The notes beneath the pieces are model-generated. The model did no database searches. It had not been told where the DNA came from and saw only the letters and a program-made list of their open reading frames with translations. A DNA stretch of 13,085 nt, from positions 1 to 13,085 of the forward strand of contig JAWCLA010000019.1 of the NCBI GenBank assembly GCA_039091855.1, given 5' to 3'. The DNA is from Candidatus Aenigmatarchaeota archaeon. GTDB taxonomy: Archaea > Aenigmatarchaeota > Aenigmatarchaeia > QMZP01. Positions 3,650 to 13,051 of the stretch are shown here, in pieces (the first letter of the stretch is position 1; each line of letters begins with the position of its first letter). A program made the translations under genes and the position numbers.

Positions 3650-3970
3650 TTACGCAATCGCTGCATTTTGTGGAGCTATTATAAGCCACTCGTCATCCAC
3701 AAGCGATATGCTTGAGCCGTTCTGAACGCATATCTTGTTTATCTTGGCTACTGCCTGCTTCAACTCGTCCATATTAGTTTGCTTCATTGTTTTTAACCCC
3801 ACAAAAACTATGTTGTTTGCTCTTATGCTCTTGGCAATCCTGTCAGTCTCTGAGAACCTTTGCAGGCTATGAACAACTATTTTGGCAGTTTTTGGAGATT
3901 GCTGTTCAATGTTAAGTTCTACATACTCATTTCCGTCTTCCTGCCTTTTCATTCTTTCACCCAATGCCAT
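3650..3970 (-). CDS. sepF: SepF-like cell-division domain with its own probable internal start
   Basis: MALGERMK...EYVEL...SLQRFSETDRIAKSIRANNIVFVGL...DELKQAVAKINKIC..NGSSISLVDDEWLIIAP fits the archaeal SepF pattern. The SD-like GGGGTG (3982-3977) lies 6 nt before the ATG at 3970. Confidence 0.75.
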   Translation of the reverse strand: MALGERMKRQEDGNEYVELNIEQQSPKTAKIVVHSLQRFSETDRIAKSIRANNIVFVGLKTMKQTNMDELKQAVAKINKICVQNGSSISLVDDEWLIIAPQNAAIA

Positions 3971-5758
3971 TTTATGCACCCCTTCCTTTTTCAATCCCGC
4001 TGGGTAAGAATCTCGGGGAGATATTTTTATTGGAGAAACTCCAAGATGAGCAAAAATCCTTTCTGCAGCGAACCTGTTTTTAGCTTCCCTTTCCTCCCTG
4101 TGGAAATTTTTTTTGGATATTTTTATCCTGCTATTATTTAGTCCAAGGATGCTTTTAATCTTGACGCCGTAGGGATAGCGGAAGGCGTTAGTTATTGCGT
4201 GTTCGATTCCTTTTGCAGGACCTACTGCAACAGACTCCCAAAACACATATCTTACTGGAACATACTCCTTTGCCTCTACATCAGGGATTTTTGCAAGCAA
4301 TACCAGGGAACAAACCCTTACAAAAAAGGAAACAAGGAAAACTGCCTGGATTCCTGAAAGCAAAAGGTATCCTGACTCTAGGTGTTGGGAAAGATACGCG
4401 CCAAACAAAGCGCCGATAACCGTTCCTGCTCCAGCTATTAGGTTGTGGTTTGCGACAAAACCGGGCCTTTTTTCAGGAGGCGTGATGGAAAGCAGGTAGT
4501 TGAACACCACAAGGTCAAAGCATCCCCACACGAAACCGTCGTAGATTTTTACCAAAACAAGATGCCAGACATTGGAAGAAAACATATACCAAAGTGGAAT
4601 GAAGCATATAAGAATTCCGGAAACCACTAGAATCTTCCTTGTGCCATACCTGTCACACATATTTCCCCAATACTTCATTGAAACTATCTGAATAAGCGCC
4701 CCTATTGAAACAAGCACAGCGAACGAGCCGTATCCTATGTTCATATCCTTTAGCATATAAACAGCAATGAATGGAGCTCCTATGTTGACCCCAAAGTTAA
4801 CAACAAACATATAAATGGTAAAGAGTGCAAAATTCTTGTTTAGCTTTATCTGGCAGACAAGATCGCTCAGATTAAGGTTTATCCTGTAATGATACATTCT
4901 TTCCTGACTCAATTTGGGTTCACTTATCCTGATAAAGAAAAGAATAGAAAAAGCTGACAGCAAGACCGCAATAAAAAATATAACAGAAAACCCTAAATAG
5001 AAAACCAAAACACCTGATGCTATTGTTGCTAACATTCCAGCTGCCCCTATTATCATGTTCCTCTTTCCAAAATACCTGCCCCTTATGTTTTGCGGTACTA
5101 TGTCTCCCATCATGCTTGACCAGGCAGGGCTTTTCATCGTGCTGAAAAAACTAACAAGGCATAAGATTCCTATCGTGAGCCATACAGCAAAGGAACCTGA
5201 AAGAAAAAGTCCTATGAATATCAAGGGAAGCAAGAAGACTCTGGACAGGATTGTGCATAATGACCACACTTTCTTTCTGCTCATATATCTTATTAACCTG
5301 GCTCCGGGAACCTGCGAGATTATACCTGCAAGATTTTGGAAGGAATTTAAAATCCCTATCTCGGCATTGGTTGCATTAAGGGAAAGAGCAAAAGGCGTTG
5401 AGTAAGAATTTATTATAGAGCTGGACGCGTTTGTAAATACACCTTCAAAAACAGAGTTGTCAAGGTCTTTCCTTAAGACATCTTTTTGCGTTTTTTTGCT
5501 TGCTCTGGTTTTCTCCCTTTCCTGCTTTTCATCAAGCTTTATTAAATTCAGGCCAATTTTCCTGTCCTTTGAGTTTCCGCCTCCATCCCTATTTTGTGAA
5601 CCTGCCGCAGTCTTATCTTCACCTTTTGGGCCCAATCTCACAATCTTTACGTCTTTGATCTCGCCTCTTTGGATACTCTCCCCGTCCTGCAAAACTGTCC
5701 GGTAAGTTTCGCTTTCATCCATCCTCGGCTCATCAACCTTTGATTGCGTATCATTCAT
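3650..5758 (-). CDS. MFS transporter with charged N-terminal extension, fused in frame to a C-terminal SepF-like domain
   Basis: 12-TM MFS core with WSSMMGDIVPQNIRGRYFG and WGNMCDRYGTRK motifs (about 5480-4280). The last 106 aa resemble archaeal SepF. Start is either 5758 (GGGTGGAGGT immediately upstream) or 5791. Confidence 0.85.
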   Translation of the reverse strand: MNDTQSKVDEPRMDESETYRTVLQDGESIQRGEIKDVKIVRLGPKGEDKTAAGSQNRDGGGNSKDRKIGLNLIKLDEKQEREKTRASKKTQKDVLRKDLDNSVFEGVFTNASSSIINSYSTPFALSLNATNAEIGILNSFQNLAGIISQVPGARLIRYMSRKKVWSLCTILSRVFLLPLIFIGLFLSGSFAVWLTIGILCLVSFFSTMKSPAWSSMMGDIVPQNIRGRYFGKRNMIIGAAGMLATIASGVLVFYLGFSVIFFIAVLLSAFSILFFIRISEPKLSQERMYHYRINLNLSDLVCQIKLNKNFALFTIYMFVVNFGVNIGAPFIAVYMLKDMNIGYGSFAVLVSIGALIQIVSMKYWGNMCDRYGTRKILVVSGILICFIPLWYMFSSNVWHLVLVKIYDGFVWGCFDLVVFNYLLSITPPEKRPGFVANHNLIAGAGTVIGALFGAYLSQHLESGYLLLSGIQAVFLVSFFVRVCSLVLLAKIPDVEAKEYVPVRYVFWESVAVGPAKGIEHAITNAFRYPYGVKIKSILGLNNSRIKISKKNFHREEREAKNRFAAERIFAHLGVSPIKISPRDSYPAGLKKEGVHKMALGERMKRQEDGNEYVELNIEQQSPKTAKIVVHSLQRFSETDRIAKSIRANNIVFVGLKTMKQTNMDELKQAVAKINKICVQNGSSISLVDDEWLIIAPQNAAIA

Positions 5759-6036
5759 ACCTCCACCCGATACGTATAAGCGGCTGTTCATTACACTCGG
5801 GGGGCGGGCTGCCGCTTCGGGAGAGGGTTTTTAATTTAAACTTTAGTAGCCCTTGCATTAAAGACAGGCTGTATTTTGTCCTGCTGTTTGCAAGGATTTA
5901 AAGCATATTCTAATCCGCGCAGAAAGAGAGGGAATTTTATCAAGGTAAATACATAATTATATTATATATGAACCTATTTATATATCCATCATTACTATAC
6001 AGATAACTTTTTAAAGCCAAAATTCAACAGACTGAC

Positions 6037-6394: not shown

Positions 6395-7420
6395 ATGCGG
6401 GTCGGAATAATTTATGACAGGGGAGCGAAGTTAAAAACAGAGCACGATTTTATCTCAGCGTCAGCTATAAAGAGCGATGTGGATTCTGTCAGGAGAGTTA
6501 TTAAATCTATAGGATACGAACCTGTTATAATACCACTTGAGATTGACGGCTCTGACATAAAATACCAGATGTGCAGGTTTTTCAACAGGATAAAGAACTC
6601 AAACGTTGATGTTGTTTTCAACCTTTGCGAGGACATAAACGGAAACAGCCAGAACGAGATAAACATACCCGCTGTGCTGAACCTTCTGGAAATCCCGTAC
6701 ACAGGCTCTGACATATTCAGCCTTGCAATGACAAATGACAAGCAGAAGGCAAAGCACATAATGGTAAGGGAAGGCATACCCACCCCAAGGTACAGGGTTT
6801 TTTACAGCACAAAAAGAATAAGCTATCCGCTGAAATTTCCCGCGATAGTTAAGCCGAACAATGAAGACGGGAGCTTTGGTATAGACAGCGGCGCTGTTGT
6901 GAAAAATGTTGACGAGCTCAGGCAAAGGGTTTCTTTTGTTCTTGAAAAATTCAGGCAGCCTGCACTCGTTGAAGAATATGTTGAAGGGAGAGAGTTCAAT
7001 GTCTCTGTTTTCGGAAATCACCCTGAAATCGAGGTATTGCCGATTTCGGAAATTCTTTTTGATGATTTTCCCGAAGGCAAGCCAAAAATTGCCGACTATA
7101 ATGCAAAATGGATTGAAGGCAGCTTCGAGTATGTCCACACTCCTGTGAAATGCCCTGCTGAAATAGAAAAAGAGCTGGAGGAAAAAATAAGGAAAATCGC
7201 GATTAAGTGCGCGATGGTTTTCAGGTTCAGGGACTACGGAAGGGTTGACATAAGGGTCAGCCAGAACGGAAAGCCTTTCGTCATAGAGGTTAACGCGAAC
7301 CCCGACATTTCACCAAAGGCAGGGTTCATGAGGTCGTTTTTCGCGAGCGGAAGGACTTACGAGGATTTTATGAGAAGCGTGCTGAAATGGGCGGTTGAAA
7401 GGAAGGGAATTAATTCATAA
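6395..7420 (+). CDS. D-alanine-D-alanine ligase-like ATP-grasp protein
   Basis: Motifs VVFNLCE, IPYTGS, DKQKAK, GIPTP, AIVKPNNEDGSFGI, LVEEYVEGREF, DYGRVDIR and IEVNANP. It lacks the N-terminal GGxSxE motif of canonical Ddl. Confidence 0.9.
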   Translation: MRVGIIYDRGAKLKTEHDFISASAIKSDVDSVRRVIKSIGYEPVIIPLEIDGSDIKYQMCRFFNRIKNSNVDVVFNLCEDINGNSQNEINIPAVLNLLEIPYTGSDIFSLAMTNDKQKAKHIMVREGIPTPRYRVFYSTKRISYPLKFPAIVKPNNEDGSFGIDSGAVVKNVDELRQRVSFVLEKFRQPALVEEYVEGREFNVSVFGNHPEIEVLPISEILFDDFPEGKPKIADYNAKWIEGSFEYVHTPVKCPAEIEKELEEKIRKIAIKCAMVFRFRDYGRVDIRVSQNGKPFVIEVNANPDISPKAGFMRSFFASGRTYEDFMRSVLKWAVERKGINS

Positions 7421-11988: not shown

Positions 11989-12025
11989 TTTAAATAAAAT
12001 TTATGGCAATCCATTTGTATTTAAA
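11989..12025. promoter_or_regulatory. Back-to-back TATA-like boxes for gatD (-) and tRNA-Met (+)
   Basis: TTTAAA at 11989-11994 (30 nt from the gatD ATG) and at 12020-12025 (about 26 nt before the tRNA 5' end). Confidence 0.55.
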
Positions 12026-12089
12026 TCACCTGCGATTAGAATAAATTGTTGCCTGTGTGGCTCAGTTGGTTAGAGCGCCAGACTCATAA

Positions 12090-12178
12090 ACTTCGCCTTG
12101 TGACTTGTTCATTGGGCGACAGAGACGGAGAAGTTCCTTTGGAACTTCCATTTGGGACTTCGCCTTGTGACTTGTTCA
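12090..12178 (+). repeat. Perfect 22-bp direct repeat inside intron 1 (12090-12111, 12157-12178)
   Basis: ACTTCGCCTTGTGACTTGTTCA occurs twice, flanking a 45-nt spacer that contains the hairpin GAAGTTCC-TTT-GGAACTTC (12130-12148). Confidence 0.95.
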
Positions 12179-12191
12179 AGGCATAAGTTGC

Positions 12192-12246
12192 GTTTATGAG
12201 TGATGAGCGGACAGGATGTTAAAATTGCTAAAAGATTCCGCGATGA
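12192..12246 (+). ncRNA. Putative intron-encoded box C/D-like guide for 2'-O-methylation of tRNA-Met C34
   Basis: GTTTATGAGT (12192-12201) is the exact reverse complement of ACTCATAAAC (12082-12091). It is followed by ATGA (12203-12206, within GTGATGA), the stem GCGGA/TCCGC, and GCGATGA (12240-12246). Confidence 0.55.
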
Positions 12247-12278
12247 GTTTTGGGATATCTGGAGGTCGTGGGTTCAAT

Positions 12279-12335
12279 CTGAGACCGAAGCCGAATGGTG
12301 AATAAAAAAGGCAATCCGGCTTCCTTCCATGAGCA
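12279..12335 (+). other. tRNA intron 2 (non-canonical position 59/60 in the T-loop, 57 nt)
   Basis: Complete BHB: GUGGG/CCCAC exon helix, central UUCA (12273-12276):UGAG (12330-12333), bulges AU|C and CA|C, and outer UG/CA. The internal stem is GAAGCCG/CGGCUUC. Confidence 0.88.
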
Positions 12336-12352
12336 CCCCACCACAGGCATTT

Positions 12353-13051
12353 TCAAATGTCAGAAAATGATATGTATTTTCCTGCGTGTTCGTTAATGAT
12401 TTTTTTCAGTTTTTCTTTTTCTACACACCCAATTCCCCTTTCCCTAAGCATTCTTTCAAGGGATTCTATGGTGTTCGTTTTCTTTTTATATATGTCAGGG
12501 AAAACCGTGAAGCCGCCATCATCAGCAACTATCGTTTCGTACCTCAGTATTATCAGCGTGTTTTCAGGAACAGCCGGATAAAGCTCAAGCATGTCAGGAA
12601 TGGAGAGTCTTATGCAGCCGTTTGAAACGGGCCTTCCTATGTTCCAGTATTCCGTTGTGGAGTGAATCCTGTATTTTTCAGTCAAACCGTAATTCTTGGT
12701 AAAAATCCTTATCCCGAGCGCCCTCATTTTTTCATAGGGAACCCTTACCCTTCTTCCGTCAATGGTTGAGCAGAACCTTATTATTTTTCCCTGAAGTGGT
12801 CCTGGATCCTTGTACCTGAACACCGGCCTTTCAACCTTCTCGTAAATAACACCCTTCCCAACAGGAGTCTGTGTTTGATGTTTTCCAACAGAAACCCTGA
12901 ACCTTCTTCCTTTGTATCTAAGGCAAAATTCGGGTATATTCACGTCAATGTATTCGCTTGATGGCAGGCAAAAATCAGGAACTATAAAGTCGGCTATCAT
13001 TCCCGCTGTCCCCAAGCCTGCATATCTAAGGAAATCCCTTCTCGAAATCAT
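12353..13051 (-). CDS. L,D-transpeptidase (YkuD/ErfK family) with Tat signal peptide
   Basis: SRRDFL twin-arginine motif, DVNIPEF.L, VSVGK..TQTP.G, and catalytic RIHST.....IGRPVSNGCIRL. Confidence 0.9.
   Translation of the reverse strand: MISRRDFLRYAGLGTAGMIADFIVPDFCLPSSEYIDVNIPEFCLRYKGRRFRVSVGKHQTQTPVGKGVIYEKVERPVFRYKDPGPLQGKIIRFCSTIDGRRVRVPYEKMRALGIRIFTKNYGLTEKYRIHSTTEYWNIGRPVSNGCIRLSIPDMLELYPAVPENTLIILRYETIVADDGGFTVFPDIYKKKTNTIESLERMLRERGIGCVEKEKLKKIINEHAGKYISFSDI

Follow-up and report, generated by a model that had tools for sequence, protein, structure and literature searches.

Why does a tRNA gene carry a first intron of 168 nucleotides (nt), and what would keep it there? The question is raised by a tRNA-Met(CAU) gene of Candidatus Aenigmatarchaeota archaeon, on a stretch of 13,085 nt (contig JAWCLA010000019.1 of assembly GCA_039091855.1) that we call the window; it is one contig of a 689-kb, 38-contig archaeal assembly that is 84% complete. 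A preliminary description of this DNA had proposed that the intron holds a box C/D-type guide for the wobble base of the very tRNA it interrupts, and had suggested looking for conservation and covariation in related introns; both are found, and they support the proposal. We think it probable that intron 1 of this elongator-type tRNA-Met is a minimal, cis-encoded box C/D-type methylation guide for its own wobble base, C34. Such a role would give a function to a puzzling long tRNA intron, which would have to be kept because the guide for the tRNA's own wobble methylation lies in it.

An antisense element facing the anticodon loop

Exon 1 of the gene (12051-12088, tRNA positions 1-37; this and all other tRNA features lie on the forward strand) ends in the anticodon loop CUCAUA, with the anticodon CAU at 12085-12087 and C34 at C12085. 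Intron 1 occupies 12089-12256 at the canonical 37/38 site, which bears out the length given for it earlier, and its ends may move by one A. Within it lies the antisense, or guide, element GUUUAUGAGU (DNA GTTTATGAGT; 12192-12201), which is, as had been claimed, the exact reverse complement of the anticodon loop and junction. Its target, ACTCATAAAC (RNA ACUCAUAAAC; 12082-12091), consists of A31, C32-A37 and the next three bases, and so crosses the exon-intron junction. The 10-mer has only two exact sites in the 13,085 bases of the window, one per strand, and by our own arithmetic the chance of an exact 10-mer complement within a 168-nt intron is about 1.5e-4. Allowing up to one mismatch raises the count to three, where 0.94 would be expected; as 15 of 200 shuffles get that far, this looser count is unremarkable on its own. 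No better guide target than 12082-12091 was found within the window.

A kink-turn one base past the duplex

A single base, G12202, separates the guide from a D'-type box, AUGA (12203-12206), which supplies the non-bulged strand of a potential kink-turn. Counted upstream from the box, G12202 is the first base and G12198 the fifth, and G12198 pairs with C12085, that is, C34. The box runs into a 5-base-pair (bp) C-stem, GCGGA / UCCGC (12207-12211 / 12237-12241), closed by a 25-nt loop and followed by the C'-type strand (12242-12249), in which a bulge, GAU (12242-12244), precedes G12245-A12246, G12247 and U12248. This layout permits the sheared pairs G12245.A12206 and A12246.G12205; G12247.U12204 replaces the usual U.U and U12248-A12203 the usual G-C, the deviant first A of AUGA having a compensating partner in U12248. 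Judged by its sequence, the module combines a kink-turn of the C'/D' type with a guide in N+5 register: its D' and C' boxes are able to form the kink-turn with tandem G.A pairs expected of a box C/D guide, and the guide stands directly 5' of D', with its target at N+5 in a 10-bp duplex.

The coordinates given earlier for AUGA, GCGGA, UCCGC and GAUGA (12242-12246) are all correct, as is the N+5 register on C34. Two of the box assignments change. GUGAUGA at 12200-12206, taken for a C box, is incidental, as relatives read N-N-CUGA, N-N-UUGA or N-N-AUGA here, which is a D'-type box; and GCGAUGA at 12240-12246, taken for a C' box of the RUGAUGA type, resolves in the kink-turn register into the bulge GAU and the sheared GA of 12245-12246. 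The preliminary description could not place a full C-D'-C'-D set, and rightly so: there is one kink-turn only, and the module is therefore a half-mer and not a canonical full C/D small RNA (sRNA). Two candidates for a D box were rejected. CUGG at 12259-12262, 12 nt past the C' box, is the anticodon stem itself and its spacing is not kept in relatives, and the CUGA that some lineages have near the 3' splice site shares bases with the UGAG strand of the helix used in splicing.

Conservation and covariation among relatives

A DNA search of 60 relatives and the window's own genome gave matches in 43 of the 61 genomes, from which we took 30 loci: 27 tRNA(CAU) genes (that of the window and 26 from its genus, family and order) and three tRNA-Ile(GAU) genes. 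All 27 CAU genes have an intron at 37/38 with the same order of parts, running from an antisense element through one unpaired base, a four-base box and a hairpin or short loop to a bulge, mostly of 3 nt, and GA. The antisense element makes 6-11 contiguous pairs, and the G opposite C34 is the fifth base upstream of the box in every ortholog examined (27/27). At the fixed offset the box reads UUGA in 11 genes, AUGA in 6, CUGA in 6, UCUA in 2, ACGA in 1 and UAGA in 1, giving xUGA in 23 of the 27. The first D' base and the second base after GA form U-A in 14 genes, C-G in 5 and A-U in 2, with a mismatch in 6; automated placement of the kink-turn was wrong in four loci, of which three (L013, L014 and L025) read by eye as CUGA-loop-GAUGA with a C-G pair, and the fourth (L030) has U-A.

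The C-stem varies in sequence among relatives while its pairing is kept, and the guide and the intronic part of the duplex change together (window AAC/GUU, L007 UCC/GGA, L010 G/C). Even between genomes of the same genus the 5' parts of the introns are unrelated, whereas the 3' module is kept, and we conclude that selection acts on the 3' module. Relatives also have in common the layout on the splicing side, with UGAG, UGGG or UAAG, a 3-nt bulge and the 3' strand of the anticodon stem.

The covarying intron bases bear on where such a guide would act. The intron, once excised and possibly circular, could in principle have its targets in trans, for instance in rRNA or in other tRNAs with a CAU anticodon, and not in its own precursor. 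In keeping with this idea, the tRNA-Met intron of Nanoarchaeum equitans is stable and abundant once excised (PMC3491384), and the title of Singh et al. 2004, as it appears in the reference list of PMC4033218, terms the pre-tRNA-Trp intron-encoded ribonucleoprotein (RNP) trans-acting. Yet part of the duplex in the present family is formed by intron bases that change in step with the guide, which requires the substrate to be an intron-containing tRNA-Met precursor, and the window offers no better target. We regard a purely trans-acting intron as very improbable; as regards its target, it would be a variant of the cis-encoded C34 guide rather than a true rival to it.

A wider distribution

To look beyond these relatives, a pattern (GAGC-N6-CTCATA-N(0-30)-TATGAG-NNN-TGA) was scanned against one genome per species and matched at least 120 stretches. 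Among the 80 matches listed, 8 are bacterial by record title, which we put down to chance, and the rest are archaeal: many come from Micrarchaeota, others from Aenigmatarchaeota, Woesearchaeota, Nanohaloarchaea, Nanoarchaeota and Hadarchaeota/Hadesarchaea, from some metagenome-assembled genomes titled Marsarchaeota or Methanosarcinales, and from N. equitans Kin4-M (L090). The module is also present in a cultivated DPANN archaeon, Micrarchaeum A_DKE (L075). A wider set of 50 unique archaeal loci with a T-arm close by was drawn from the matches listed. In 49 of these 50 loci the base that follows UAUGAG is complementary to position 31 (AU 37, GC 11, UA 1), where shuffles give a mean of 39 and a maximum of 44; only 12 have a pair between the spacer base and position 30. 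The box is AUGA in 29 loci, CUGA in 12 and UUGA in 9, its TGA being preset by the pattern, and it is followed by a hairpin, a 3-nt bulge and GA, under a scoring that is biased to 3-nt bulges.

Covariation also extends to the kink-turn. In an alignment of 56 short anticodon arms (A1), 85.9% of the cells of the named structure are paired, against 74.7% after shuffling, with none of 500 shuffles as high, and the covariation score is 0.278, against 0.102 for shuffled sequences and 0.03-0.07 for slid partners. All three pairs of the kink-turn stem show compensatory double changes (in 8, 9 and 20 of the 56 sequences), and base 1 of D' with base 6 of C' forms AU in 11, UA in 8 and CG in 6, with another combination in 11 and a gap in 20 of the 56.

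By its short form alone the class is widespread: of 301 genomes sampled from the phylum 129 have it, as do 43 of the 98 among them that are at least 90% complete; a backward-read control of the short form turned up about a dozen genomes. The window's own genus scores 0 of 4 in this count because the distance between anticodon and guide exceeds 30 nt there.

The same arrangement was seen outside tRNA-Met. In two relatives, the tRNA-Trp genes L160 and L161 have a 37/38 intron reading UUGGAGC-U-AUGA-hairpin-UAU-GA, with a single kink-turn, aimed at C34. The tRNA-Trp pattern gave seven matches in 6 of the 61 genomes, two of which (L160 and L161) are of this minimal design; in the window's own genome its matches all fall within coding-looking sequence.

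Competition between guide and splicing folds

The same precursor must also be spliced. In the minimum-free-energy fold with the anticodon stem enforced, the 3' half of the splicing motif lies at 12251-12257, where UGGG (12251-12254) pairs with C32-A35 and the bulge AUA (12255-12257) contains the 3' splice site. This half of the bulge-helix-bulge is canonical, CUCA/UGGG and AUA adjoining the anticodon stem. At the 5' site a strict 3-nt bulge, UAA, leaves two U unpaired opposite it, in a 3x2 loop. Over 12078-12262 the splicing fold (anticodon stem, CUCA/UGGG and bulge AUA) comes to -58.5 kcal/mol, the same fold with both 3-nt bulges forced open to -55.9 kcal/mol, and the fold with the guide duplex and the kink-turn stem enforced to -56.8 kcal/mol. 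Given the 3x2 loop and the cost of the strict fold relative to the minimum, we describe the motif as a relaxed bulge-helix-bulge. The C' strand overlaps the helix of the splicing fold, and the two folds therefore compete.

Partner proteins and the case against a working guide

The preliminary description had made its proposal depend on fibrillarin and Nop5. Fibrillarin is encoded in the window's own genome (286.5 bits), as is L7Ae (109.6 bits); Nop5 was not found in this 84%-complete assembly, where the Pfam Nop model gives no candidates, the genes adjoining fibrillarin do not include it, and tblastn with a same-genus Nop5 has a best E-value of 1.8. Nop5 is present in 37 of the 41 genomes searched, a number in which the window's own genome is counted among those lacking it, and in three of four same-genus relatives.

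The missing Nop5 is one of several points that weigh against methylation of C34 by this intron. Neither a terminal C/D pair nor a second guide was found upstream of the guide in five same-genus genes or in short introns. No box containing GA stands upstream of the guide in the window or in relatives, and an intron of 37 nt, as in L031, leaves no space for one. The two-motif architecture of C/D RNAs, with terminal C/D and C'/D' about 12 nt apart, is thus absent from the window and its relatives. In classical in-vitro work half-mer C/D RNAs were reportedly poorly active. The boxes deviate from consensus, with AUGA for CUGA and AUGAGUU for RUGAUGA. As for the comparative evidence, the related sequences are not independent, and the six core pairs of the duplex are invariant but preset by the search pattern, so that only the flanking positions make a fair test. 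Nor is an active C/D system independently evident in this genome, as no canonical C/D signature appears in 689 kb: a strict regular expression for canonical C/D sRNAs has no match, and box-spacing histograms show only the 3-nt periodicity of coding sequence, with no peak at 12 nt. The assembled portion may contain few canonical C/D sRNAs, or none. We also considered, and rejected, a general use of half-mer guides on rRNA: of 608 kink-turn-hairpin candidates in the genome, 17 have a complement of at least 9 nt in the partial 23S, which is no enrichment over the controls (17 reversed, 29 antisense). The 16S gene was not found in the assembly.

These points could be accommodated if the antisense element and kink-turn were a structural module that binds L7Ae and masks the anticodon, chaperoning folding or the timing of splicing or stabilizing the excised intron, with no methylation involved. 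In its favour are the single kink-turn lacking a terminal C/D pair, the competition between the folds, and the failure to find Nop5 or canonical C/D sRNAs in the assembly. It leaves unexplained, however, why the box stands exactly one base past the duplex with N+5 on C34 in all 27 genes, why the spacer base is left unpaired in most of the wider set, and why the site concerned is one that C/D RNAs guide in other archaea and in humans, in a genome that has retained fibrillarin. We consider a purely structural role unlikely.

Another way to account for the degenerate boxes, the repeat-swollen intron and the apparent lack of Nop5 is that the guide of this particular genome is a decaying relic that no longer works. 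AUGA stands where CUGA is expected, a 67-nt repeat (described below) separates target from guide, and Nop5 is absent from one of the four same-genus genomes as well as from this one. Decay of this kind is hard to square with a 10-bp duplex that is perfect and whose intron half fits the present junction, or with a box that is the commonest in the wider set and whose A is compensated by U12248; both Nop5-less assemblies, moreover, are incomplete (84% and 86%). A relic therefore seems to us quite unlikely, and we return to a guide that works in cis.

A model for methylation before splicing

We envisage the following sequence of events. In the unspliced precursor, GUUUAUGAGU would pair with the stretch from A31 to intron base +3, a step to which the complementarity and its covariation point. 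AUGA, GCGGA...UCCGC and GAU-GA would then fold into the C'/D'-type kink-turn, as fold potential and covariation suggest. L7Ae would bind the kink-turn and Nop5-fibrillarin would be recruited to it, whereupon fibrillarin would 2'-O-methylate C34, which faces the fifth guide base upstream of the box. Finally, the precursor would refold into the nearly isoenergetic splicing fold (anticodon stem, CUCA/UGGG and the AUA bulge), and the endonuclease would excise the intron. A half-mer particle may work only as a pair, with a Nop5 dimer joining two precursors or two excised introns. Binding of L7Ae, like the presence of 2'-O-methylated C34 (Cm34) in this tRNA, is what we infer from the module and would expect to find.

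A broader proposal is one we hold tentatively, and think somewhat doubtful as a whole. A kink-turn and 7-10 bp of antisense, lacking terminal C/D boxes, might be a sufficient cis guide, and such half-mers might be the normal route to Cm34 in the elongator tRNA-Met of many DPANN archaea and Hadarchaeota, and in some tRNA-Trp, perhaps with two precursors held across a Nop5 dimer; the fibrillarin machinery of the present genome might then be kept largely for intron-borne tRNA guides. In any case, the single-kink-turn design lets one ask for the minimum size at which a C/D guide still works.

A genome-wide repeat in the intron

The unusual length of intron 1 has a separate cause. Unit A (12090-12156) is a 67-nt copy of a hairpin repeat found throughout the genome by own-genome BLAST, composed here of the 5' module TTCGCCTTGTGAC, GACGGA with a hairpin at 12130-12148, and CTTCCA. 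It is followed at 12157-12178 by a 22-nt direct repeat of 12090-12111 with 100% identity, a partial second copy of the 5' module, so that the intron contains about 1.3 repeat units. In general the repeat has the architecture 5' module TTCGCCTTGTGAC, variable part, GACGGAGAAG-hairpin-CTTCCA; its 3' module occurs in 33 copies on 11 contigs, in 14 hairpin variants with covarying stems, and the copies form tandem arrays. Unit A is an unrelated repeat that has landed in the intron outside the guide and makes it unusually long. The 5' GUU of the guide pairs with the first bases of the repeat, and the junction sequence would be identical with or without unit A because the next unit opens with the same 22 nt. 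Relatives have other sequences in place of the repeat. Inspection by eye showed no bulge-helix-bulge at the borders of unit A that would make it a separately spliced intron. What the repeat at this border suggests is that such introns tolerate mobile DNA provided that they retain the 3' module. Insertions, of 38-78 nt, are likewise tolerated in the terminal loop of the kink-turn hairpin.

Some further observations concern the repeat itself. In L007 and L008, GAAUGAAGG-hairpin-CCUUCCA elements sit within the terminal loop of the guide kink-turn hairpin, and in L008 they are nested. At 12 of 18 sites, repeat arrays or solo 5' modules start 3-5 nt after CAT (on contigs C1, C4, C13, C33, C36, C37 and C38, and in the window at 971-1002 on the reverse strand and 12090-12178 on the forward strand). 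This CAT is mostly the opposite-strand ATG of a plausible gene, among them a MinD-like gene, an RpoN-like gene, the window's rhomboid gene and others, and in the tRNA it is the anticodon. At 11 sites tested the frame upstream of the ATG closes within 0-42 codons, so the arrays look like 5' flanks, conceivably a mobile leader or promoter cassette, and not like coding sequence.

The remainder of the gene and its surroundings

Downstream of intron 1, exon 2 (12257-12278, tRNA positions 38-59) is followed by a second intron of 57 nt in the T-loop at 59/60 (12279-12335, with the hairpin GAAGCCG...CGGCUUC) and by exon 3 (12336-12349, tRNA positions 60-73; CCA is not gene-encoded). A TATA-box-like TTTAAAT lies at 12020-12026, about 28 nt 5' of tRNA position 1, as read from the DNA, a spacing that we take to be consistent with an archaeal promoter. 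Joining the three exons in silico yields 74 nt that form a perfect cloverleaf, identified by ARAGORN as tRNA-Met(cat), a call that carries no elongator label; the elongator type is our assumption, made by comparing the acceptor stem (GCCUGUG) and anticodon stem (CCAGA) with initiator and Ile2 features. Exon 1 is 95-98% identical among same-genus genomes.

The unspliced gene escapes both ARAGORN and Rfam because two introns interrupt it. At default settings ARAGORN finds no gene in the window, and with introns of up to 300 nt it finds four tRNA genes in the 38 contigs, none of them on the window contig. Rfam gives no match in the window at the gathering score and, at E<=10, only tRNA (15.1 bits) besides chance matches. 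The genome as a whole has almost no uninterrupted tRNA genes, the Rfam tRNA model giving six weak matches with a best score of 26.1 against a cut-off of 29 bits; several introns, or non-canonical ones, probably interrupt the majority of its tRNA genes.

Intron 2 comprises the hairpin GAAGCCG...CGGCUUCC, then UUCCAUGAGCAC. Homologous T-loop introns with a GAAGG-hairpin-CCUUCC occur in same-genus relatives (L006, L007), and the hairpins of T-loop introns are similar to the core of the genome-wide repeat. A hot-spring metagenome contig that is 90-95% alike over 12172-12442 keeps the guide region, with U12204>A within the D' box, and has 26 different letters in place of the 57 nt of intron 2; we read this contig as a related strain with a swapped T-loop intron. 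Four hot-spring metagenomes have DNA matches, the contigs being mostly other tRNA-Met genes or copies of the repeat, and no RNA data set is among the listed matches; one metatranscriptome of the same study gave no match to the stretch.

Elsewhere in the window, two genes encode peptidoglycan-type enzymes that are unexpected in an archaeal genome, an ATP-grasp protein of the D-Ala-D-Ala-ligase type (6395-7420, forward strand) and a protein with a YkuD L,D-transpeptidase domain (12353-13051, reverse strand). A 713-residue open reading frame on the reverse strand (3650-5791) joins an MFS transporter to a C-terminal SepF cell-division domain. GatD and GatE are both encoded on the window contig.

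Comparison with known systems

The haloarchaeal guide RNA sR-tMet reportedly has an unusual C'/D' motif. It resembles the present case in its target, C34 of an intron-containing elongator pre-tRNA-Met (Joardar 2011, as cited in PMC4033218 and PMC6601510), and differs in being a separate, trans-acting gene, where the window has the guide within the target's own intron. Human SNORD97 and SCARNA97 likewise direct C/D RNP-guided Cm34 in elongator tRNA-Met; unlike the intron described here, they are stand-alone snoRNAs lodged in mRNA introns that have full box sets and act in trans (Vitali and Kiss 2019, PMC6601510). Both haloarchaea and humans use C/D RNPs to produce Cm34 in elongator tRNA-Met (PMC4033218, PMC6601510).

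Closer in arrangement is the guide carried by the intron of euryarchaeal pre-tRNA-Trp (Clouet d'Orval 2001; Singh 2004; both as cited in PMC4033218); it also lies in the intron of its own target, forms a duplex that spans the junction, is aimed at C34, and has guide and splicing folds that are mutually exclusive. The window has one kink-turn and one guide, a minimal design that recurs in the tRNA-Trp introns L160 and L161. The tRNA-Trp intron, in contrast, has the full C, D', C', D set plus a second guide, for U39.

The closest counterpart is in N. equitans. The preliminary description had held introns encoding their own guide to be known only for tRNA-Trp; this does not stand, as the 66-nt intron of the N. 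equitans elongator tRNA-Met was reported (Randau 2012, PMC3491384) as a C/D-like RNA that is stable and abundant, its box D matching the consensus and its box C being mutated, and it has the same module. Before that report only tRNA-Trp introns were known to contain C/D RNA, according to the same paper. The main text of PMC3491384 names no target, and the terms 'anticodon', 'wobble', 'C34' and 'in cis' have no occurrence in it; nor did we find a paper in which a tRNA-Met intron guide is given C34 as its target, in a search whose scope stopped short of subscription journals and supplements. In our reading the intron (L090) runs CUAUGAGC-U-CUGA-CCCGAAAGGG-GAUGA, then a GC hairpin and GUGAG-AAA. 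It shares with the window the tRNA-Met host, the 37/38 site, the antisense element, the one base, the D-type box, the small hairpin and the C-type box, as well as a UGAG-like strand with a 3-nt bulge at the 3' splice site and N+5 on C34. With its elongator assignment based on stem features, the gene in the window falls among tRNA-Met intron guides of the N. equitans type. The two differ in the box, a consensus CUGA there and AUGA with a compensating U here, and in the intron, 66 nt there and 168 nt with a 67-nt repeat here; RNA-level evidence comes from N. equitans alone, the window being known from its sequence. The comparative data assign a concrete target, C34, to a class of intron RNA that was published for N. 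equitans with none named in the main text. The kind of guide is thus already known, from the tRNA-Met intron of N. equitans and from the tRNA-Trp intron, and what is added here is an explicit C34 target supported by covariation and a minimal design with one kink-turn.

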